DNA of 63,899 nucleotides, counting the filler. It is 4 parts of 4 records of this genome, joined end to end, with 100 filler letters (N's around TTAATTAATTAA, not from the genome) between each part and the next. Parts side by side here need not be neighbours in the genome. Positions count along the whole stretch, not along the records: positions 1 to 17,367 come from SRR22947727_1893; 3 more parts are not named here. One strand, written 5' to 3'. Made by a program: the position numbers and the translations under genes. Shown here in pieces: positions 1,565-17,731 of this stretch. The notes under the pieces are model-generated. The model was given only the letters and a program-made list of their open reading frames with translations, made no database searches and had not been told where the DNA came from. Positions within the stretch are counted from its first letter, which is position 1. Each line of letters begins with the position of its first letter.

Positions 1565-1738
1565 ATGTACTTCACCGACCGAGGGATCGAGGAACTGCAA
1601 CGCCGACGAGGCGACGAAGAAGTCACCTTCGACTGGCTCGGAGATCGCATGCAGGAGTTCGTCAACCTGCACCCCGATTTCGAGGTTCCGGTCGAACGAC
1701 TCGCCACCTGGCTCGCGCGCTTAGGCGACGACGACTAA
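1565..1738 (+). CDS. Small conserved actinobacterial protein (DUF6104-like), 57 aa, below ORF-track cutoff
   Basis: Manual translation MYFTDRGIEELQRRRGDEEVTFDWLGDRMQEFVNLHPDFEVPVERLATWLARLGDDD; AGGAC/GGAC RBS-like sequence upstream; resembles the family I recall following kgd. Confidence 0.85.
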   Translation: MYFTDRGIEELQRRRGDEEVTFDWLGDRMQEFVNLHPDFEVPVERLATWLARLGDDD

Positions 1739-1772
1739 GAGCGGCTTCCCGTCCTACCCACCACACGAGCGT

Positions 1773-2060
1773 TCATCGATATCGGAAGACTAATCGCCCG
1801 ATGATCAAGTTGTCCGGAACCACCCCAAACTGGCGACTGTCATCACTCACGTGTGGGTTATCACCGAGCACCCACCACCCATTGCCTTCTCGATGACTCA
1901 AGCGCTTCACCACGCTGAGGTCCCGTCGCTGCGGGTGCTGGACGAGAACAACGTCCCCGTTCCGAAGTTTCGCGCTCCTGCGCACGACCCACCATTGCCC
2001 GTTTCGCACCGCTGGCTCCATAGACGGGCCGACAACACGGACAGTGGTGAATGAGCGCAC
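1773..2060 (-). CDS. sodX: Nickel-SOD maturation protease (peptidase S26 family)
   Basis: VVGPSMEP (catalytic Ser), VVKRL (Lys), GDNPHVSDDSRQFG; divergent from sodN; GTG start at 2060 inferred. Confidence 0.9.
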   Translation of the reverse strand: MRSFTTVRVVGPSMEPAVRNGQWWVVRRSAKLRNGDVVLVQHPQRRDLSVVKRLSHREGNGWWVLGDNPHVSDDSRQFGVVPDNLIIGRLVFRYR

Positions 2061-2142
2061 CTTGCCATCCTGCCGCGTGCCGAGTCCGTTCTCGGGCGCT
2101 AGGGTCAGAGCAGGCATTCATTCATCACCTCGAAGGAGTCTC

Positions 2143-2556
2143 ATGCTCAACAGCATCTTTCGGGCCCTCCAGCCCCGCACCACCGCCTATGCGCACTGCG
2201 ATCTGCCGTGCGGCGTCTACGACCCCTCCCAGGCTCGCCTGGAGGCCGAATCCGTGAAGGCCTGCATGGAGAAGTACCACGCCTCCGATGACGCTGAGTT
2301 CCGTGCGCGCTCTGTGTCCATCAAGGAAGAGCGCTCACACATGGTCAAGGAGCACCTGTGGGTGCTGTGGACCGACTACTTCAAGCCCCCGCACTTCGAA
2401 AAGTACCCGCAGTTGAACGAACTGTTCAACCAAGCGACCAAGCTCGCCGGGGCCGGAGGCACCAAGGGCTCCCTGGATCCGGCTGTCGCTGATGATCTTC
2501 TTGGAAAGATCGACGAGATCGCAGGAATTTTTTGGGAGACGAAGCAAGCCGCCTAA
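2143..2556 (+). CDS. sodN: Nickel superoxide dismutase precursor
   Basis: Ni-hook HCDLPCGVYDP after a short propeptide; KEHLWVLWTDYFKPPH; AAGGAG RBS. Confidence 0.97.
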   Translation: MLNSIFRALQPRTTAYAHCDLPCGVYDPSQARLEAESVKACMEKYHASDDAEFRARSVSIKEERSHMVKEHLWVLWTDYFKPPHFEKYPQLNELFNQATKLAGAGGTKGSLDPAVADDLLGKIDEIAGIFWETKQAA

Positions 2557-2572
2557 CGCCAAACTCAGCAGC

Positions 2573-2608
2573 ACAGACCCCCGTTCCCTCCTGGGAACGG
2601 GGGTCTGT
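2573..2608 (+). terminator. Hairpin terminator after sodN
   Basis: 16-bp perfect stem ACAGACCCCCGTTCCC/GGGAACGGGGGTCTGT, 4-nt loop. Confidence 0.8.
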
Positions 2609-2743
2609 CAATGCGTCAGACAATGACTGTGAGACCCATTGAGCGAATCTGTCTCATCTCCTTGACACCCCTCCTTGCCGTGAATAGGACGGTAGAGGTG
2701 CCCGATGCGGGTACCTACATGACCAAAACGAAAAGAGGGGGTC

Positions 2744-3193
2744 ATGATGCATGTGAAGAGAGGAATCGCGGCAGTTGGAGCGGTCGCGCTCATGTCGATT
2801 GGAGTTCTCTCGGGCTGCTCATCCGACGACGCAGCGCCCGTCGAGGAGCCCGCGGTCGAAGAACCTGCAGTTGAGGAGCCCGTGGTCGAGGAGCCCGCGC
2901 CGGTAGCCCAGGCTGTACCTCTGGCCCCGGGTAACTCTGTGGCGTGGGCACCGGGGCAGGACGACGTCACCATATTGGTGGGCCAATTCATCGACATCAC
3001 TGTCGGAGACCCGCTCGCCACCACGGTCAGCAGCAGCGACCCCCGCACCCTCAAGCCATTCCCTGGAAAGCAAGACTACGAAGAAGTATTTTATCCAGCA
3101 GCAAAGGGAATCAACCCAGGTGCCGCGACACTGACGGTGACACTGTCCGATGGAACCAGTTCTGACATCGCCGTCACAGTGAACGGCAGATAA
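2744..3193 (+). CDS. Hypothetical lipoprotein with EEPAV repeats and a beta-rich C-terminal domain
   Basis: Signal peptide with lipobox LSGC; four EEP(A/V)(V/P) repeats; GAGGGGG RBS. Confidence 0.8.
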   Translation: MMHVKRGIAAVGAVALMSIGVLSGCSSDDAAPVEEPAVEEPAVEEPVVEEPAPVAQAVPLAPGNSVAWAPGQDDVTILVGQFIDITVGDPLATTVSSSDPRTLKPFPGKQDYEEVFYPAAKGINPGAATLTVTLSDGTSSDIAVTVNGR

Positions 3194-3307
3194 GTCGCAA
3201 AAGTCCCCCATGAGTCGTAGTCAAGCGGCGGAGCTGACATAAGCACTTTGCTGTAACGACTCCTGGGAGACCAACAAGGCCTGAGTTCGCTTTCCAAACC
3301 ACCAGAC

Positions 3308-3338
3308 AACCCCCATTCCTTCCGGAAAGGGGGTTTTT
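3308..3338 (+). terminator. Hairpin terminator after second sodN-tail copy
   Basis: AACCCCCATTCC-TTCC-GGAAAGGGGGTT followed by T-run. Confidence 0.65.
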
Positions 3339-3381
3339 GGTTTCCATCGTTGGTGCGCGTGGGCACCTGCGGGTCCCAGCG

Positions 3382-3437
3382 TTGACATTCCTTCCCTTTA
3401 GTTCTATCTTCAACTAACTGATTGAATATTGAACTAA
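3382..3437 (+). promoter_or_regulatory. Housekeeping-sigma promoter with overlapping inverted repeat (candidate operator) upstream of CDGSH gene
   Basis: TTGACA (3382-3387), 17-bp spacer, TATCTT (3405-3410); inverted repeat TTAGTTC-TATC-TTCAA...TTGAA-TATT-GAACTAA (3398-3437). Confidence 0.65.
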
Positions 3438-3449
3438 AGGAGCGCTTTC

Positions 3450-3659
3450 ATGTCCGATGCAACAACTCAGGTGACAACCCTTACCGACGGGCCCAACGTG
3501 GTCAGTGGCGATTCTGTCGTGGTTCGGGATCAAGATGGCAACGTCGTTGCCGAAGGCGAGACGGTATATCTGTGCAGATGCGGCCTGAGCGACAGCAAGC
3601 CGATGTGCGACGGCTCTCACCGCAAGCACCCCGGACTGGGAGCACCTTCCCCTGAGTAG
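3450..3659 (+). CDS. CDGSH iron-sulfur domain protein
   Basis: LCRCGLSDSKPMCDGSH motif; AAGGAG RBS. Confidence 0.92.
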   Translation: MSDATTQVTTLTDGPNVVSGDSVVVRDQDGNVVAEGETVYLCRCGLSDSKPMCDGSHRKHPGLGAPSPE

Positions 3660-3755
3660 CCGCATGATCGGCGCGTGCTCTCTTGGGTAGCATGATGACG
3701 TGACCTGAGAAGCCACACCAGTAGGAGGACATCACCACTCTACGGTGAAGTCTCC

Positions 3756-3992
3756 TGGGAGACCAAGAAAGCGGCCTAGCGTCAAACTCAGCAGCACAGA
3801 CCCCCGTTCCCGCCTGGGAGCGGGGGTCTGTCAGTGCATCAGACAATAAATGTGAAGTGACACTGCTCGATGGGACCAGGTTTGACGTCGCCGTCACCGT
3901 GAACGGCAGATACGTCAGAAAAGTCCCCCATCAGTCGTAGCCAAGCGCCGGCGCTGACATGAGCACTTTGCTGACGCGACTCCAAGGAGACC
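3756..3992 (+). repeat. Diverged, internally deleted duplicate of 2533-3272 (sodN tail + terminator + last codons of lipoprotein gene + its downstream sequence)
   Basis: 3756-3855 aligns to 2533-2632 and 3857-3992 aligns to 3137-3272 with scattered substitutions; about 500 bp missing. Confidence 0.9.
3796..3831 (+). terminator. Copy of the sodN terminator hairpin
   Basis: ACAGACCCCCGTTCCC-GCCT-GGGAGCGGGGGTCTGT. Confidence 0.75.
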
Positions 3993-4246
3993 AAAAACGC
4001 AGGATGACGTTGCGCGCTGCTCCAAAAGCCCCGGATTCACTCCGAAGATCGGTGGTTTTTACTCTTGCGATCAGACATGGCGTGCGACAAGTCGCCGGCG
4101 CCTAATTCGCGCCGCATATCTCAACGGTGAGCCAGACCCTGCGCGCCGACAAGGGCCTATCAGGTTCCTTCAGACGCGAAGATGGCCCGATCCGATCACT
4201 CGGTACGGTGAAGCGATTCGCCACGGCGCAGAGACGCCGCCGAGCG

Positions 4247-4528
4247 CTATTCGCCTCGTCGGATGAGGTTATGTGTTTCGGCGACCTCAGGCTCGCCCGG
4301 GTCGATGCGCATGTCCTCGAGAATGGGAGTCAGTCCATTGGCGTGACGCTCCATGGCTTCCATGGACTCGTAGACCACGGTGACCTTCATTTGATCCCCA
4401 GACCCGAAGCACACTTCGAGCTCGAGACCGTCAACGGGGTGAACACCCAACTCCCGCTCTCGAGCCAAGATGGCGTCGTACTGCTCAGCACTGAGCGAGG
4501 GGGGTGAAAAATGTACGACAACAGCCAT
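4247..4528 (-). CDS. Small hypothetical protein (93 aa), possibly ferredoxin-like/dimeric alpha-beta barrel fold
   Basis: MAVVVHFSPPSLSAEQYDAI... with GGAGGAG RBS; true start is internal to the 238-aa track ORF; fold is a guess. Confidence 0.75.
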   Translation of the reverse strand: MAVVVHFSPPSLSAEQYDAILARERELGVHPVDGLELEVCFGSGDQMKVTVVYESMEAMERHANGLTPILEDMRIDPGEPEVAETHNLIRRGE

Positions 4529-4702
4529 GGGGTCTCCTCCAACGGTCGAGGGCGGCTTACGCCCGCTAGCAACGTCTCTTCCGTGCGAATAGCTCAAGCC
4601 TAGGAGACTGCTCACTGATCGCATCTTGACACTTGCTCTGCTCGCATCCGGTGTTTCTCGGCGCGCCAAGCCGACAGTAGGTACTGCTGCTAGCGTCAAC
4701 AA

Positions 4703-5752
4703 GTGACGAACCTGCTCTCCGTAGCCCCGCTGCTCCCGGCCTACCGCTATTCCCAGGGCGAGATCACGCAACCCCTCGTTGACAGTTTGAGCCGCAACGA
4801 GCAAACCTCGGCTGTTATTCGTCGGATTCACGGTGCCACAGGAGTCGAATACCGCTCCTTGGTTATGCACCTTGACGCGTACCGGCAAATCAACGACTTC
4901 ACTCACGCGAATCAACTTTTCCGCGAGCACGGACTGCCGCTTGCGCTCGCTGCCACTCGGCAAGCACTAGACGATGCTGGCGTGGAGCCCACAGACATCG
5001 ATTACCTTTTCTTCACGACGGTGACCGGAGTCGGCGCGCCATCACTGGATGTCGAACTCGCGCAGGCATTGGGATTTCGATCGGATGTGAAACGAATTCC
5101 CAGCTTCGGTTTGGGATGTGCAGCAGGTGCCGCTGGGATTGCGCGAGTCAACGATCTACTTCGCGGTGATCCTGGCGCATTGGCCGCCCTGGTCTCCTTG
5201 GAACTGTGCTCCCTGACGATCCAATGGGACAACGCTTCCATGGCGAACATCGTGGGTACCGGACTGTTCGGAGACGGTGCGTCGGCACTCATTTTTGCCG
5301 GAGCGGACAGGGCGGAGCAACCGATCGCCAGCGTCTTGGGGTCGCGTAGTGCGCTCTACCCCGAATCACTGGAAACGATCGGCTGGAACATCGGCACGTT
5401 CGGTCTCCGGCTGATGCTGACCCCAGCGGTGCCGGAACTGATCCACCGCCACCTCGCCGATGACATTGACGCCCTCTTGTCGGAGCATGGACTCGCACGG
5501 AGCGATGTGAACGAGTGGATTGCTCATCCGGGAGGTCCACGGGTGTTACAGGCCTTTACGGACTCCTTAGAACTCGCCCCCGGCGACCTAGCCACGAGCT
5601 GGGATGTGCTCGCAGATTCTGGGAACCTGTCTTCCAGTGCCGTGCTACACGTGCTGGCGCGTCACTCGACGAAGCCGGCTGGCCATCTCGGAGTGCTCTT
5701 CGCCCTCGGACCTGGAGTAAGTGTCGAAATGGTGTTATTGGAGTGGCGGTGA
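4703..5752 (+). CDS. Type III polyketide synthase (SrsA/BpsA/AgqA-like)
   Basis: Catalytic Cys-His-Asn contexts GLGCAAG, WIAHPGG, GNLSS; ELCSL, LFGDGA, ALGPG motifs. Confidence 0.95.
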   Translation: MTNLLSVAPLLPAYRYSQGEITQPLVDSLSRNEQTSAVIRRIHGATGVEYRSLVMHLDAYRQINDFTHANQLFREHGLPLALAATRQALDDAGVEPTDIDYLFFTTVTGVGAPSLDVELAQALGFRSDVKRIPSFGLGCAAGAAGIARVNDLLRGDPGALAALVSLELCSLTIQWDNASMANIVGTGLFGDGASALIFAGADRAEQPIASVLGSRSALYPESLETIGWNIGTFGLRLMLTPAVPELIHRHLADDIDALLSEHGLARSDVNEWIAHPGGPRVLQAFTDSLELAPGDLATSWDVLADSGNLSSSAVLHVLARHSTKPAGHLGVLFALGPGVSVEMVLLEWR

Positions 5753-6267
5753 TTCTGTACACACTGTTCGTTTTAGCCACCGGTCTCGAACGGCTCTACG
5801 AACTCCGTATCTCAAGGACCAACGCACGAATCGCCACTGAGCAAGGCGGTAAGGAAGTCGGTCGCGATCACTTCCCGTGGATGGTCGCGCTGCATACCGG
5901 CCTTTTGGTGGGGGCGATCGCGGAAGTGTGGATTTTTGACAGGCCCTTCATCGTTTGGCTAGGCGTCCCGATGCTCATCATCACGCTCGCCTGTCAGTTC
6001 GGACGTTACTGGATCATCTCAACATTGGGCTGGCAGTGGAATACCCGCGTCATCGTGGTGCCCGGAGCGCCGCGCAACCGGAGAGGTCCTTATCGATTCC
6101 AGTGGCTTCGTCATCCCAATTACTGGATCGTCGTGATCGAGGGCATTGCCCTTCCGATGATTCACACCGCCTGGATCACTGCACTGGCTTTCACGGTTCT
6201 CAATGCCGTCCTGCTCCTGGGCTTTCGAATCCCGACCGAGAACGAAGCACTCCGGGAATTGGCGTGA
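5749..6267 (+). CDS. Isoprenylcysteine carboxyl methyltransferase family protein (SrsB/BpsB/AgqB-like)
   Basis: GTGA overlap with PKS; ERLYEL..S..N, GPYRF.WLRHPNY, RIPTENEAL. Confidence 0.92.
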   Translation: MILYTLFVLATGLERLYELRISRTNARIATEQGGKEVGRDHFPWMVALHTGLLVGAIAEVWIFDRPFIVWLGVPMLIITLACQFGRYWIISTLGWQWNTRVIVVPGAPRNRRGPYRFQWLRHPNYWIVVIEGIALPMIHTAWITALAFTVLNAVLLLGFRIPTENEALRELA

Positions 6268-7304
6268 CGGGCACCCGGGTGGCCATCGTCGGCGGAGGCC
6301 CGGTGGGGCTGGCGGCTGCTCTGTTTGCCAAGCGCGCAGGCATGACTCCGATCGTCATCGAGGCCAGGGACTACGACGGAGACAAAGCCTGCGGCGAAGG
6401 ACTCATGCCCGGGGTGATGCCCCTCTTGAAGGAACTTGACCTTGACCCGCCGGGACGTGATTTGCTCGGGGTGTCCTACCGCCAAGGGGCAAGACAAGTC
6501 GATCATCTCTTCCCAGGCGCCCCTGGGCGGGGCGTCCGACGAACAGTTCTCGTCGACGCGATGCGCGCGGAAACTGAACGGCAGGGCATCGAACGAATGC
6601 ACGCCCGAGTCACCGGACTGACCCAAGATTCGTCGCGCGTGCTCTTGCGGTGCGCTAACGGCGATGACGTGGAATCAGATTACGTGCTCGGCTGCGACGG
6701 GCTGCACTCCACCGTTGCTCGCCAATTGGGCCTCGTCGCGCGACCTTCACGACGCGCACGTCGATACGGACTACGGCAGCACTTCCAGCGCACCCCCTGG
6801 AATTCGATGATTGAGGTCTACTACGCCGGCGATGCAGAGCTCTACATCACACCGGTAGATGAGGAGACCGTGGGCGTCGCGGTGCTAGGTCCGAAAGGAA
6901 TAAACCTGAGCACAACGATCGCCCGGGTGCCGGGGATCAGCGCAAAACTCGACGGAGTCCCAGCTGCATCCAGCCTGCGTGGCGCCGGTCCGTTTCCCTA
7001 CCGGGTGCACCATGCCCAGTCCGGCCGAGTGCTGCTGGCCGGCGACGCCGCTGGCTACGTCGATGCAATCACGGGTGAGGGCTTACGGGTTGGATTCGCC
7101 CAAGGGCGAGAGGCCATCGCCGCCCTGCAGGCCGGACAACCCGCTTCGTATCCACAGCGTTGGCGAAAGGTCACACGCGAGTTTCGACTTCTTACTCGCG
7201 GGATGGTGGCGCTGGCCTCTTCCCCACTGCGCGACTCGATTGTCCCACTAGCCAGTGCAGCGCCTCGGGTGTTCGGAGCCGTCGTCAATCGATTGGCCCA
7301 ATAG
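6264..7304 (+). CDS. FAD-dependent monooxygenase (SrsC/AgqC-like)
   Basis: GTGA overlap; GGGPVG, DKACGEGLMP, GCDGLHS, LAGDAAGYVDAITGEG. Confidence 0.9.
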   Translation: MTGTRVAIVGGGPVGLAAALFAKRAGMTPIVIEARDYDGDKACGEGLMPGVMPLLKELDLDPPGRDLLGVSYRQGARQVDHLFPGAPGRGVRRTVLVDAMRAETERQGIERMHARVTGLTQDSSRVLLRCANGDDVESDYVLGCDGLHSTVARQLGLVARPSRRARRYGLRQHFQRTPWNSMIEVYYAGDAELYITPVDEETVGVAVLGPKGINLSTTIARVPGISAKLDGVPAASSLRGAGPFPYRVHHAQSGRVLLAGDAAGYVDAITGEGLRVGFAQGREAIAALQAGQPASYPQRWRKVTREFRLLTRGMVALASSPLRDSIVPLASAAPRVFGAVVNRLAQ

Positions 7305-7309
7305 TCGTG

Positions 7310-8125
7310 ATGGGCGCCGTTCTGCGGTCGAGCCACCCAGTCCCTACCTTTGCGGTGACGCTGCTGTCATTGCTGCTGGCAATCGCGTTCGGCGTGGCAC
7401 CCGCACAAGCGGTCGTGGTGGTGGTCGCAGTCTTCCTGAATCAGATTGCTATCGGCTTGAGCAACGACATCGTCGACGTCGAGCGCGACCGGCGGGCCGG
7501 CCGGACCGACAAGCCGCTCGTTGCCGGGGCGATACCTCGAACAACTGCATGGGCGGTTGTGATCACGGCTACGACGCTGTCGATTGCGTTATCTGTGAGC
7601 ATCAACCCGCGGGTGGGACTCTGGCAGGGGGTGTTCTTGATCTCAGGATTCGCGTACAACGCTGGACTCAAGGCAACCGTCTTCTCGGCCGTCCCGTACG
7701 CCACCGGCTTTGCAGCCCTTCCCGCTCTGGTGAGCTTGAGCGCGAAGCCGCCCGAGTTGCCCGCCTGGTGGGTGATGCTGGTCGGTGCAATCTTGGGGGT
7801 CTCCGCTCACTTCGCCAACGTTCTTCCGGATGGAGAAAGCGATAAAGCCGAGGGCATCCGCGGGCTTCCACAGCGCCTTCCCCGAGTGGTTACTGCCGCT
7901 GCTTTGGTCGGATTGACCGGTGTCGCCTCAGCCCTGTTGATCTGGCAGGGCGGTTTTGCTTCCATTTGGGTGACAATCCCCGTTGGCGTTGCCGCCGTGT
8001 TCGTTTCCATCGTTGCCGCTGTGCTCACGCTTCGAACGCCCCTGACTTTGTGGCCGTTTCGATTGTCGATAGTGGCCGCCGGCTTGATTGCTGTGGGCTT
8101 GTTGGGCGTCCTGCGGCTTACCTAA
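7310..8125 (+). CDS. UbiA-family prenyltransferase (AgqD-like)
   Basis: SNDIVDVERDRRAGRTDKPL Asp-rich motif, second motif NVLPDGESD, multiple TM helices. Confidence 0.9.
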   Translation: MGAVLRSSHPVPTFAVTLLSLLLAIAFGVAPAQAVVVVVAVFLNQIAIGLSNDIVDVERDRRAGRTDKPLVAGAIPRTTAWAVVITATTLSIALSVSINPRVGLWQGVFLISGFAYNAGLKATVFSAVPYATGFAALPALVSLSAKPPELPAWWVMLVGAILGVSAHFANVLPDGESDKAEGIRGLPQRLPRVVTAAALVGLTGVASALLIWQGGFASIWVTIPVGVAAVFVSIVAAVLTLRTPLTLWPFRLSIVAAGLIAVGLLGVLRLT

Positions 8126-8297
8126 CGGCCGGTCCCGGCAAGACCCAAGGGGGCGCGCTCCGGTCTGCTGGGAGCGTGTCTCTCATGCATCGTCGCGTTC
8201 CGCAAGACTCTCCGATGGCTTCCCGTGGACGAGAAGACACACCTAGAGTCAATAGGCGATTGGTACGGTTATGGCCTACTCGCAGGTAAGGAACATC

Positions 8298-8717
8298 ATG
8301 GCAAGAGTGCAGGTGGCTTTGAACGTCTCCGACATCGATGCCGCAGTGGACTTCTACTCCCGAGCCTTCCGGGCCACCGTGCATAAGCGGCGCCCCGGTT
8401 ATGCGAACTTCGAGATTGCTGATCCACCCATGAAGTTGGTGCTTTTCGAAGTCAACGATCGCGGCGAGGGCTCGGGAAATGCTCTGAACCACATCGGCAT
8501 CGAAGTGCCTACGACCGAGGATGTTGGTGAGCAGGACGTCGCCTTAAGTGACGCTGGTCTCGAGGTGAGGCGAGAGGACGGCATGGTGTGCTGCCATGCG
8601 CAGCAGGACAAGCTCTACGTCGTCGACCCCGATGGTTTGGAGTGGGAGACCTACGCAGTAACCGATGAATCCCCCGACGGTCTGGCTTTGTTGGGCACCG
8701 ACAATTGCTGCGCCTAG
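8298..8717 (+). CDS. ArsI/CadI family VOC metalloenzyme
   Basis: ARVQVALNVSD, RPGYANF..ADPPMKLVL, vicinal CCHAQQDK, DPDGLEWE, C-terminal CCA. Confidence 0.9.
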   Translation: MARVQVALNVSDIDAAVDFYSRAFRATVHKRRPGYANFEIADPPMKLVLFEVNDRGEGSGNALNHIGIEVPTTEDVGEQDVALSDAGLEVRREDGMVCCHAQQDKLYVVDPDGLEWETYAVTDESPDGLALLGTDNCCA

Positions 8718-8772
8718 GCAAGCCGGTCGCCATCGCATAATCGCGGGGCTTTACCTCGGATAGCGTGGCCTC

Positions 8773-9267
8773 GTGATCCGAGAAGCAACGCCGGACGACG
8801 TGGCTGCTATCCACAACATGATCGTCGGCCTAGCGGAGTTCGAGATGGAGCCCGATGCGGTTACGGCGACCCCAGCTGATCTGCACGAGGCGCTCTTCGG
8901 GCAGCGGCCAGCGCTGTTCGCGCACGTCGCTGATGATGCCGAGCACGGCGTGGTCGGTTTCAGCCTATGGTTCTTGAACTATTCAACGTGGCTCGGCACT
9001 CACGGCATCTACCTCGAGGATTTGTTCGTTCAACCCGAGCATCGGGGATCCGGGTACGGCAAGGCACTGCTGGCGAACCTCGCACGTATCTGCGTCGAGC
9101 GCGGGTACGGACGCCTGGAATGGTGGGTGCTGGACGAACCGAATATGCAGTCCTCATGGCGCTTCTACGAATCGCAGGGAGCCCGGGCGCTCCGAGAATG
9201 GGTACCCCACCGCGTAACGGGTGACGCCCTGATCGACCTGGGCGGTGGAACTACGTCCCAAAAATGA
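8773..9267 (+). CDS. GNAT N-acetyltransferase (SSAT-like)
   Basis: FLNYSTWLGTHGIYLEDLFVQPEHRGSGYGKALL, RLEWWVLD. Confidence 0.92.
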   Translation: MIREATPDDVAAIHNMIVGLAEFEMEPDAVTATPADLHEALFGQRPALFAHVADDAEHGVVGFSLWFLNYSTWLGTHGIYLEDLFVQPEHRGSGYGKALLANLARICVERGYGRLEWWVLDEPNMQSSWRFYESQGARALREWVPHRVTGDALIDLGGGTTSQK

Positions 9268-9449: not shown

Positions 9450-9971
9450 TCAGGGGTAGCGCACCTCGCCGGGAACCTCTCGGTAGCCGACGGAGATCAC
9501 CGTCTCGACCACACGCTTGGACCTGGCGGACACGTTGACCCGGTACTCCCCCGGTATCGCGTCGGATTCCACACGTGAGAGATACAAGTAGTCGGTACCG
9601 CCGTACGGCTCGTAGAACTCCGTACGTTCGTTAATGATCATCCGCGTCTTTCGGCCCTGGGGGTCGGTGATCGTCACCCGAGGAAGACGGGCGTTGCGGA
9701 TCTCGTTGCTCGGCGGCCTATCCAAAATCAGTAGCTGCACAGCCATCCGGTCGCCTTCTTCCAAACGAAAGCGGAAGCCCCGGCGATCGCCCCGCTTGAT
9801 ATCGGCAAAGAGTGCAAAAGAGATAGTGCCGTCCACCAGGAGTGGGCCCTTCGCCGGAGACGACTCTGCTGGGCCGAGCCCAACCGGCTGGTGAGCCGCC
9901 ACTGGTGGCGCAACCACCAGCGCCGCCGCAGCGATAGCGGCTGCAACGACGACCCGAGAAATGAACGTCAT
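9450..9971 (-). CDS. Secreted hypothetical protein
   Basis: MTFISRVVVAAAIAAAALVVAPPVAA|HQPV signal peptide; soluble beta-rich mature part. Confidence 0.75.
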   Translation of the reverse strand: MTFISRVVVAAAIAAAALVVAPPVAAHQPVGLGPAESSPAKGPLLVDGTISFALFADIKRGDRRGFRFRLEEGDRMAVQLLILDRPPSNEIRNARLPRVTITDPQGRKTRMIINERTEFYEPYGGTDYLYLSRVESDAIPGEYRVNVSARSKRVVETVISVGYREVPGEVRYP

Positions 9972-10059
9972 GAGCCCTACTGTGCCAAAATTTCGCCACG
10001 CGAGCATCTTGGATGCGCGCCTATCGCCTTTGATCGGCCGAGGGTGCAACACTTCGGCC

Positions 10060-10851
10060 ATGGATGGAACAGACCTGAAAGCCAAGTCAGAGACCGGCAT
10101 TTCGTTCGCGGGCCTTCGCAAACTCAACCTGGTTGCTGGATTCGCCCATCTGGCGCAGATGCTGCTGGTTCTCGTGCTGGCGAGCGACTTTTCCCTACCC
10201 ATCACGGCGGCCTACGTATTTGGCCCGCCTGGAACTCCGCCGAACGACCCGGTCACCATCTTCGAATCCCGCATCGCATGGGGCGTGGCTCTGTTCTTCG
10301 CGCTGTCGGCCTTCTTCCACTTTGTCGTTGCAAGCCGATGGTTCTACCCGCGCTATGTCGGCGGGCTGCAGTCCGGACACAACTACTTCCGTTGGGTGGA
10401 GTACTCGCTGTCGTCATCCATCATGATCGTGCTGATCGCGCAGATCACAGGAATTTCCGACGTTGCCGCGCTCATGGCGATCTTCGGCGTGAATGCATCG
10501 ATGATTTTGTTCGGTTGGCTGCAAGAGAAATACGAGCAGCCCGGTGGCGGAATGCTGCCCTTCATTTTCGGCTGCATGACCGGAATCGTCCCGTGGCTCA
10601 TCATCGTGGTCTGGGTGCTCGCCCCCGGCTCGTCGAGCAAGCCGGAGATTCCAGGCTTCGTCATCGGGATCATCATCACCCTGTTCGTGTTCTTCAACAC
10701 CTTTGCTCTGGTCCAGTGGCTGCAATACAAGCAAGTCGGCAAGTGGCGGGACTACCTGCGCGGTGAGCGCAGTTACATCCTGTTGAGCTTGATTGCCAAG
10801 ACGGCTCTCGCGTGGCAGATCTTCTCGGGAACCCTCGTGCCTCCGGCCTAG
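10060..10851 (+). CDS. Heliorhodopsin (HeR)
   Basis: 7 TM helices; TM1 HLAQ, TM2 SAFFH, TM3 NYFRWVEYSLSSSIM, TM7 YILLSLIAK (retinal Lys). Confidence 0.95.
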   Translation: MDGTDLKAKSETGISFAGLRKLNLVAGFAHLAQMLLVLVLASDFSLPITAAYVFGPPGTPPNDPVTIFESRIAWGVALFFALSAFFHFVVASRWFYPRYVGGLQSGHNYFRWVEYSLSSSIMIVLIAQITGISDVAALMAIFGVNASMILFGWLQEKYEQPGGGMLPFIFGCMTGIVPWLIIVVWVLAPGSSSKPEIPGFVIGIIITLFVFFNTFALVQWLQYKQVGKWRDYLRGERSYILLSLIAKTALAWQIFSGTLVPPA

Positions 10852-17467: not shown

Positions 17468-17731
17468 TAATTGGCTTGGTTGATTGGTTATAGATAAATG
17501 GTTGTGGTTATAATTGATTGCTTGTGCTTGGTTGAAATTATTTGCTTGTAGTTGCGCTTGTGTTTGGATGGTTCAATTAACTCATTTAGTTGACTCATTA
17601 GTCATTTCAATTTAAGCATTTTATCTATTAATTTAATTGAATCTTTCGCTTCAATATTTCATCCTAAAAAACGAGCTATGAAAGAGATCTCAAATGTCCA
17701 TAGGTTAACCCATCAAAAAGCACACAAAATA

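Follow-up and report, generated by a model that had tools for sequence, protein, structure and literature searches.

The sodN gene encodes nickel superoxide dismutase and occupies positions 2143–2556 on the plus strand of the 63,899-nt stretch of joined contigs analyzed here (hereafter, the window; Pfam Sod_Ni, E 5e-42). Its 3′ end is a new target gene for a known process, the accretion of genomic islands. We consider it probable that the tail of sodN is the bacterial attachment site (attB) of integrating elements and that the window records a late, integrase-less state of the island formed there. The initial annotation of this DNA, which had proposed an attachment site inside the 3′ end of sodN, was right in kind. 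The terminus of the gene is TGGGAGACGAAGCAAGCCGCCTAA at positions 2533–2556 (WETKQAA*), exactly as had been read before, and this tail is kept at the DNA level across the sodN loci searched. Judged from sequence comparison, its last ~19–24 nt appear to be the attachment core.

The 3′ end of sodN serves as an attachment site in relatives, where integrases lie directly against it. Among the sodN loci compared (160 in total, 80 from genome contigs and 80 from metagenome contigs, denoted by L numbers), full tyrosine integrase genes were found by tblastn in L026 (368 aa) and L122 (355 aa); they converge on sodN, end 37–43 nt past its stop codon, and match the Pfam Phage_integrase domain together with the central domain. 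These two genes are the recombinases that the initial annotation had suggested looking for beside sodN in related genomes. Truncated integrase copies were detected by tblastn at the same place in L020, L134, L147, L069, and L013, and an integrase fragment adjoins the second tail copy of L114. A DNA profile of the region past the sodN stop codon and the integrase 3′ end, built from six of these loci and searched with nhmmer, also matched L031, L008, L021, and L069, as well as the second copy of L114 and one further copy in the L020 genome. Integrase genes, fragments, or 3′ relics thus stand beside the sodN tail at 11 loci (2 full and 9 partial). A candidate integrase 3′ relic after the sodN of L143, picked out by eye, was rejected, having no nhmmer match at E ≤ 0.01. 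As a separate observation, the sodN-linked integrase 3′ ends contain direct repeats of the form AGTCCGCA-N4-AGTCCGCA (L026, ~5480–5500, with equivalents in L020, L147, and L013), and the integrase-3′-end profile has weak matches (E 0.004–0.007) in L172, L176, and L177, approximately 100–140 nt upstream of the distal tail. The AGTCCGCA repeats and the distal-arm matches could, from their sequence and placement, represent arm-type integrase binding sites on both arms.

The distal copies of the tail delimit the duplicated segment. The genome of L020 (G062) carries, 5.7 kb downstream and in the same orientation, a second tail with a further integrase 3′ end behind it; on another contig of this genome, the same upstream stretch (hereafter, arm) and tail are joined to different downstream sequence with a terminator-like hairpin. 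In the genome of L026 (G066), a tail copy occurs on another contig, and the following ~95 nt match the empty site of L027, its native sodN downstream sequence, with one mismatch; this genome has both an attL and an attR. On the element side of the attR, genes for an HK97-type capsid, an SPP1-type portal, and a tyrosine recombinase are located within 6.6 kb, which makes at least this element prophage-like. Between the proximal and distal copies, identity extends over 15–19 nt, starting at GGAGACC and ending with the stop codon. This GGAGACC is also where tail duplicates start in no fewer than seven other lineages (L114, L118, L124, L132, L143, G062, and G066), and by our own estimate a GGAGACC-type 15-mer with no more than one mismatch would be expected by chance ~0.02 times in ~0.5 Mb. 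In five lineages other than that of the window (L050/L143, L114, L118, L124, and L130/L132), the duplicate lies 1.5–2.4 kb past sodN, and no integrase was detected inside these five units, the fragment of L114 being located after the tail copy. The cargo between sodN and the tail copy is unrelated among the five and consists mostly of single secreted-protein genes: one secreted protein in L050/L143, a TetR regulator, a monooxygenase, and a GNAT fragment in L114, one 750-aa secreted protein in L118, a BNR-repeat protein in L124, and one secreted protein in L130/L132.

The window itself contains an array of such tails. Three additional copies follow sodN, at positions 3264 (WETNKA*), 3756 (WETKKAA*), and 3984 (KETKNAG*), all open to a stop codon, as the initial annotation had described; a pattern search with a junction-spanning 18-mer (≤3 mismatches) recovered three matches against 0.02 expected, a number reached in none of 100 shuffles. 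The first tail is followed by a terminator hairpin at 2573–2608 (−39.2 kcal/mol, z −7.7 against shuffles), and hairpins also follow tail 2 (3301–3341, z −3.8) and tail 3 (3796–3831, z −6.4). A hairpin had been claimed after every extra copy; this holds for the copies at 3264 and 3756 but not for that at 3984, where the putative hairpin at ~4024–4060 has a z of −0.5 and 63 of 200 shuffles fold equally well.

The position of the junction had to be revised. The copies had been thought to begin right after a CTCC that had no homology to sodN, but a profile of 65 sodN 3′ ends aligns them from CT.CTGGGAGACC onward, so that CTCC is aligned with the sodN consensus CTTC and is therefore not a foreign boundary. 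Consistent with this, blastn matches to other sodN genes begin at 3260, and the duplicated segment in other lineages starts at GGAGACC; the junction is thus not at CTCC|TG, and the duplicated core starts at GGAGACC. Upstream of CT.CTGGGAGACC, the same profile found no similarity to sodN in the copies, in agreement with the earlier reading, but the stretches of ~36 nt upstream of copies 2, 3, and 4 (arms c2, c3, and c4; repeat family D3) are similar to one another (c2 versus c3, p < 0.001 in local alignment against 2000 random 40-mers). The dyad GTCTCC-TG-GGAGAC, reported earlier as perfect, is so at copy 3 only, and sodN itself carries the near-dyad ATCTTC-TG-GGAGAC. An origin of the arms from the 5′ coding region of the GNAT acetyltransferase gene or from sodN was rejected, because the homology to L094 ends at 3721 and the sodN profile is silent upstream of CT.C. 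A likeness of arm c3 to the arms of L114, G062, and L143, noticed by eye, was not significant (p 0.05–0.9). The motif TGGGAGACC also occurs at 8643–8651 inside a glyoxalase-family gene (codons W-E-T); as a 9-mer, it is probably there by chance.

The tail copies divide the array into units of 731, 492, and 228 bp, the sizes given in the initial annotation, all of them on the plus strand. Unit 1 (2533–3263) consists of tail 1, its terminator, a lipoprotein gene (2744–3193), and arm c2 (~3226–3263); its first 100 nt (2533–2632), comprising the tail and the hairpin, are the left copy of a direct repeat. Inspection of the translated lipoprotein open reading frame (ORF) revealed a signal peptide and an LSGC lipobox, the ORF has no Pfam match, and tblastn located it at this site in this lineage only (L082 and L086–L090). 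Unit 2 (3264–3755) consists of tail 2 (3264–3284), its terminator, a CDGSH gene (3450–3659, plus strand; PF09360 zf-CDGSH, E 2.7e-15), the upstream region of a GNAT gene together with the first 22 nt of the gene (3682–3721), and the 34-nt arm c3 (3722–3755). Just 5′ of the CDGSH gene (3382–3440), we observed a promoter-like TTGACA-17 nt-TATCTT overlapping an inverted repeat of 19 nt (3395–3413 / 3422–3440, 89% complementary), which may be an operator. Unit 3 (3756–3983) consists of tail 3 (3756–3779), its terminator, a relic of the lipoprotein gene 3′ end (3857–~3945), and arm c4 (3946–3983); it is followed at 3984–4060, on the same strand, by tail 4 (3984–4007), which has the mutated core AAGGAGAC, and its decayed hairpin.

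Two repeats connect units 1 and 3. In repeat D2, positions 2533–2632 (tail and terminator) match 3756–3855 with 89% identity, and in repeat D1, positions 3137–3280 (lipoprotein 3′ end, arm, and tail) match 3857–4000 with 85% identity; overall, 2533–3280 matches 3756–4000 except for a 504-bp deletion. This makes unit 3 a duplicate of unit 1 that has lost 504 bp from its interior. The junction of copy 2 is also that of copy 4, and since copy 4 and its upstream sequence are a paralogue of the end of unit 1, the array contains two independent junction types, not three. The cargo assigned earlier (lipoprotein, CDGSH, and deleted relic) was borne out by ORF reading, PF09360, and the 85% repeat; the claim of three independent cassettes was not, given that unit 3 is an old deleted paralogue of unit 1. 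The units of the window are thus small integrase-less blocks, either leftover or hitchhiking, stacked at the sodN end.

Unit 2 has a foreign origin. Positions 3260–3721 are collinear with the sodN–CDGSH–GNAT spacer of L094–L096 (91% identity), in which the sodN body is followed by tail 2, terminator 2, the CDGSH gene, and then the GNAT gene (window 8755 onward), with no arm. The contig of L098 starts in the same way, from sodN to tail 2, and ends at window position 3410, before the CDGSH gene. In L094–L096 and L098, tail 2 is the working sodN tail. The region 3260–3410 is 98% identical to L098, although the sodN of L098 is only 87% identical to that of the window, and the homology to the GNAT region of L094 stops at 3721, where arm c3 begins. 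Unit 2 is thus a recently imported chromosome slice. On this sequence evidence, it appears to be the slice of another lineage from the sodN tail to the GNAT start, plus an arm, placed core-to-core between units 1 and 3. One possibility is that the arm was gained through an aberrant excision that took adjacent chromosomal DNA of the donor.

The region downstream of sodN varies among relatives in discrete blocks. In loci with at least 1500 nt of downstream sequence, the GNAT gene, which forms the conserved right flank of the hotspot (8773–9267 in the window, plus strand; Pfam Acetyltransf_1), lies within 400 nt of sodN in 40 of 111 cases and at 400–6220 nt in 41 (tblastn distances), and it was not seen in the available sequence of the remaining 30. 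In the window, the region between the array and the GNAT gene (4061–8772) encodes, by Pfam, a small ORF, a type III polyketide synthase, an ICMT-family methyltransferase, an FAD-binding enzyme, a UbiA prenyltransferase, and a glyoxalase-family protein, and this region is missing where the GNAT gene is no more than 400 nt behind sodN. L082, an independent assembly, has the window's array and is collinear with 1792–8999 (7.2 kb) at 97.9% identity. Four other close relatives (L002, L083, L084, and L085; 98–99% identical) lack exactly 2533–3755, their sodN body being joined directly to a tail of the tail-3 type and then to the relic, so that the empty and occupied sites differ by precisely this block. 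In a lineage of ~91% identity, L086–L090 have unit 1 (at ~91% identity) followed directly by unit 3, without unit 2, and L091, L093, and L004 have unit 3 alone. Unit 1 is thus absent from L083–L085, L002, L091, L093, and L004, and unit 3 is the sole unit present in all close relatives. The block-wise variation anticipated in the initial annotation was therefore found, with boundaries at the tail copies (L002, L004, L083–L091, and L093).

Both the long and short forms of the array were also found in metagenomes. The stretch was present in 19 data rows from 11 studies, 16 of these rows containing at least half of the sampled words and bearing the labels marine, seawater, marine plankton, estuary, sponge, and viral metagenomes. 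Four runs from four studies (X1, X2, X3, and X8) were mapped onto the window, all of them as contigs, which drop rare forms. In X1, the contig over 2560–3785 had a depth of 10.9, compared with 29–32 in the flanks, and in X3, the insert contig had a depth of 73.9, compared with ~200–218 in the flanks. X3 also contained the short-form junction, a contig starting at 3756 that was preceded by the loose end GCAGGAATTTTT, where the sodN body terminates. Two metagenomes of different studies (X1 and X3) therefore contain both forms side by side, roughly 1:2 (long to short) by contig depth. A single contig of X2 crosses 2358–3804, and two overlapping contigs of X8 cover 2379–3866. Of the two signals that the initial annotation had proposed seeking in metagenomes, empty sites were thus detected, as the short-form junction of X3, but circular junctions were not seen among the contigs of the four runs. 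The run that matches the stretch best, X1, is labeled as a viral metagenome, with a flank depth of ~30; this signal could derive from very small cells passing through filters or from packaged host DNA.

The joints of the short forms indicate how the blocks are gained or lost. In the short form of the 98–99% lineage, all five diagnostic bases within the first 27 nt of the tail are those of tail 3, and the joint is therefore in or to the left of TGGGAGAC. Homologous recombination would be favored in the 30 identical nt at the center of the 100-nt repeat, but the joint does not fall there. Its position agrees with a site-specific exchange at the core, running in either direction, and we infer that the joint inside TGGGAGAC is of this nature. 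In the 91% lineage, the short forms L091 and L093 mix both tail types, L088–L090 contain patches of the other tail type, and part of the presence/absence variation is ordinary homologous recombination within the 100-nt tail-plus-terminator repeat. Both processes, site-specific and homologous, appear to act at the array.

Taken together, these data suggest the following course of events. The attB core would be the last ~19 nt of sodN (GGAGACCAAGAAGGCCTGA and variants, encoding E-T-K-K-A-stop), and it would be used, in marine and freshwater Actinobacteria, by a family of elements that encode tyrosine integrases and include at least one prophage-like member. With every integration event, a substitute tail for sodN would arrive, in most cases accompanied by a terminator, and the old tail would be displaced downstream, whereby the gap between sodN and GNAT would become an additive island. 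Later decay, deletion, and recombination between cores and terminators would leave small units without an integrase. In the window, unit 3 would be the oldest, a lipoprotein unit that has since undergone its internal deletion and has a mutated core; unit 1 would be an intact lipoprotein unit dating to the split of the 98% and 91% lineages; and unit 2, with its CDGSH gene and 34-nt arm, would be a recent import inserted core-to-core between them. The repeated cores and the 100-nt tail-plus-terminator repeats would act as recombination points at which blocks are lost or gained among near-identical strains. The window's own tail copies would accordingly be, in origin, the work of an integrase.

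Several observations weigh against this explanation. As had been remarked earlier, there is no recombinase gene on the window's 17.4-kb sodN contig: neither an integrase nor a relic of one was found there by Pfam analysis of 20 ORFs, tblastn, or nhmmer, and no integrase was found in the loci of the close relatives (L082–L098 and L002–L005). The window's arms do not resemble those of L114, G062, G066, or L143 (p 0.05–0.9 against 2000 random 40-mers), whereas the integrase-linked arms are mutually similar (G062–G066 and G062–L143, p ≤ 0.002), so that the array is linked to the integrase family by the shared core only. No circle or back-joint occurred among the contigs of the four metagenome runs. 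The short forms L091 and L093 of the 91% lineage combine sequence of both tail types and change from one to the other at two different points, which indicates homologous recombination or gene conversion rather than a site-specific event. Moreover, many of the metagenome contigs contain N or may be a population consensus, which may blur the typing of tails.

Of the alternatives, one, proposed in the initial annotation, retains the site but makes the units active: integrase-less mini-cassettes, each with a replacement tail, a terminator, one cargo gene, and an arm of 34–38 nt, would be mobile satellites that excise as circles and reintegrate at the sodN core with the help of an integrase acting in trans from a phage or element elsewhere. 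The joint of the long and short forms in the 98–99% lineage would be expected of such units, since it lies within TGGGAGAC at the left edge of the 100-nt homology and not in the 30-nt identical middle. It is also in keeping with them that units 1 and 2 share similar arms while their cargo is unrelated, that unit 2 recently crossed between lineages and sits exactly core-to-core, that both forms coexist within single samples, and that L118, L124, L132, and L143 likewise have single-gene units without an integrase between tail copies. However, no circle junction was seen among the contigs and no helper was identified, there is one such joint only, and one rare event followed by its spread would give the same picture. 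Furthermore, the repeated motifs that the full elements have at the integrase 3′ end are missing from the short arms, and the crossovers in the 91% lineage are plainly homologous; we regard active mini-cassettes as doubtful. A broader form of the same idea, which we offer just as tentatively, is an integron-like docking system, functionally a gene-shuffling site at a housekeeping gene's end, in which mini-units of 0.5–2.4 kb (a single gene, in many cases for a secreted or surface protein, with a replacement tail, a terminator, and a short arm) would circulate among co-occurring marine and freshwater actinobacterial strains, moved in trans by the integrases of temperate phages and able to capture neighboring chromosomal DNA, as in unit 2.

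Another explanation dispenses with site-specific recombination in this lineage altogether and derives the array from one ancient illegitimate join of an arm and a tail, followed by tandem duplication, unequal crossing-over, and homologous exchange with diverged relatives. The paralogy of unit 3 to unit 1, the single origin of all three arms, the crossovers of L091 and L093 at different points of the 100-nt repeat, and the lack of an integrase on the contig all agree with it. Nevertheless, it leaves unexplained both the GGAGACC start shared by duplicates whose cargo is unrelated in no fewer than seven other lineages and the integrases that abut the same core in 11 loci, and duplication alone is insufficient for unit 2, the interior of which differs between ends of the same kinds. 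We consider it very unlikely. A strain-chimeric join of alternative sodN alleles, named in the initial annotation as the artefact that would undo the observation, might be suspected because the window concatenates contigs of different organisms and several related contigs contain N. However, the collinear independent assembly of L082 (1792–8999, 97.9%), the spanning contig of X2 (2358–3804), and the overlapping contigs of X8 (2379–3866), together with the 19 matching rows from 11 studies, 16 of them containing at least half of the sampled words, exclude a chimeric misassembly for practical purposes, and such an artefact is scarcely conceivable. The attB explanation, with the window as a late state, is thus preferred.

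The locus can be compared with several known systems. Phage 21 and e14 reportedly integrate in the 3′ end of Escherichia coli icd and supply a substitute gene end. The sodN locus is alike in having the end of a protein gene as attB, a replacement 3′ end, and a displaced partial copy; it differs in gene and host, and in that icd receives a single element with an integrase, whereas sodN receives a stack of integrase-less units. Like actinobacterial integrative elements and prophages, the elements of L026, L122, G062, and G066 have an integrase gene that adjoins attL and points its 3′ end toward the target, and they are bounded by short direct repeats of the target end. Integrons likewise contain small promoter-poor or single-gene units stacked beside a fixed gene, with a recombination site at each boundary. 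Unlike integrons, the sodN array has no intI or attI, its boundaries are a gene-tail copy and a 34–38-nt arm rather than a folded attC, and its units carry their own terminators, the CDGSH unit also having a promoter-like site; no recombinase domain was found by Pfam in 20 ORFs of the contig. The repeat search detected no inverted repeats of the transposon, insertion sequence, or miniature inverted-repeat transposable element type bounding the units, the repeats being direct and 21–100 nt long.

The closest parallel is with the tycheposons and tRNA-linked islands of Prochlorococcus. There, elements with tyrosine recombinases repeatedly integrate at one site, newcomers displace older elements inward, and incomplete copies of the target stand between neighboring elements; old events can be recognized by integrase fragments and by additional partial targets, and cultures are heterogeneous for presence and absence (10.1101/2020.12.28.424599). 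The sodN locus is similar in its repeated integration at one site, partial target copies, degraded integrases, and presence/absence heterogeneity. It is dissimilar in that the target is the 3′ end of a protein gene, not a tRNA, and the host is actinobacterial, and in that the window's units are 0.2–0.7 kb long with no more than one gene and have neither an integrase nor a replication module. A full-text literature search that covered a minority of subscription journals found no description of sodN as attB or as a target of integrative elements or genomic islands.

Many uncultured Actinobacteria of the sea and of fresh water have sodN in use as a target, and the window affords a base-resolution view of how a flexible island between sodN and GNAT is built and trimmed in streamlined planktonic bacteria. 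Because the long and short forms coexist at roughly 1:2 in two metagenomes, the locus is a convenient natural marker for the gain and loss of small blocks, and it permits a test of whether phage integrases move integrase-less units. For annotation, extra sodN tails should be treated as attachment-site scars and not called as genes.

Viral contigs were also scanned. With the L026 integrase as the query, only relatives of 29–43% identity were recovered, with no sodN tail after their integrase genes, and the arm-plus-core junction had 0 matches in these contigs. A scan with the core only returned six loci, of which L182 and L187 have a sodN-tail-like end near the provirus border. In these two IMG/VR records, the longer tail-like end GACAAGATCTTCTGGGAGACCAAGAAGGC.TGA lies near the record border, with no sodN body in the records, which makes them a lead only; in L182, a distant integrase is located ~0.9 kb from this end. 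Prophages that target sodN may thus occur in other actinomycetes too.

Upstream of sodN, an S26-type peptidase gene (1776–2117, from the ORF and Pfam scan) is divergent from sodN. A second variable spot occurs between a DUF6104 gene and the sodX-like peptidase gene (window 1737–1792), where L082 (718–4680) and L094–L096 (L094, 3615–7650) hold ~3.9–4.0 kb of extra sequence; the insert of L082 encodes an MFS transporter and a protein of 762 aa that matches no Pfam family. The window as a whole comprises at least four joined contigs with G+C contents of ~61%, 37%, 63%, and 50–55% and ORF third-position G+C fractions (GC3) of 0.7, 0.3, 0.8, and 0.5, respectively. The borders lie at 17468, ~43700, and ~55000, the sodN contig extending from 1 to ~17467, and the window looks like a mixed bin. 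From 17468 onward, it is 100% identical to a contig of G001 (~37% G+C). No sodN was found in relatives of G001 (0 of 41 and 0 of 61 genomes in DNA and protein searches), because G001 matches only the low-G+C contig from 17468, and this result is uninformative for the sodN contig. The sodN contig also carries a heliorhodopsin gene at 9961–10848 (PF18761, E 3e-95).

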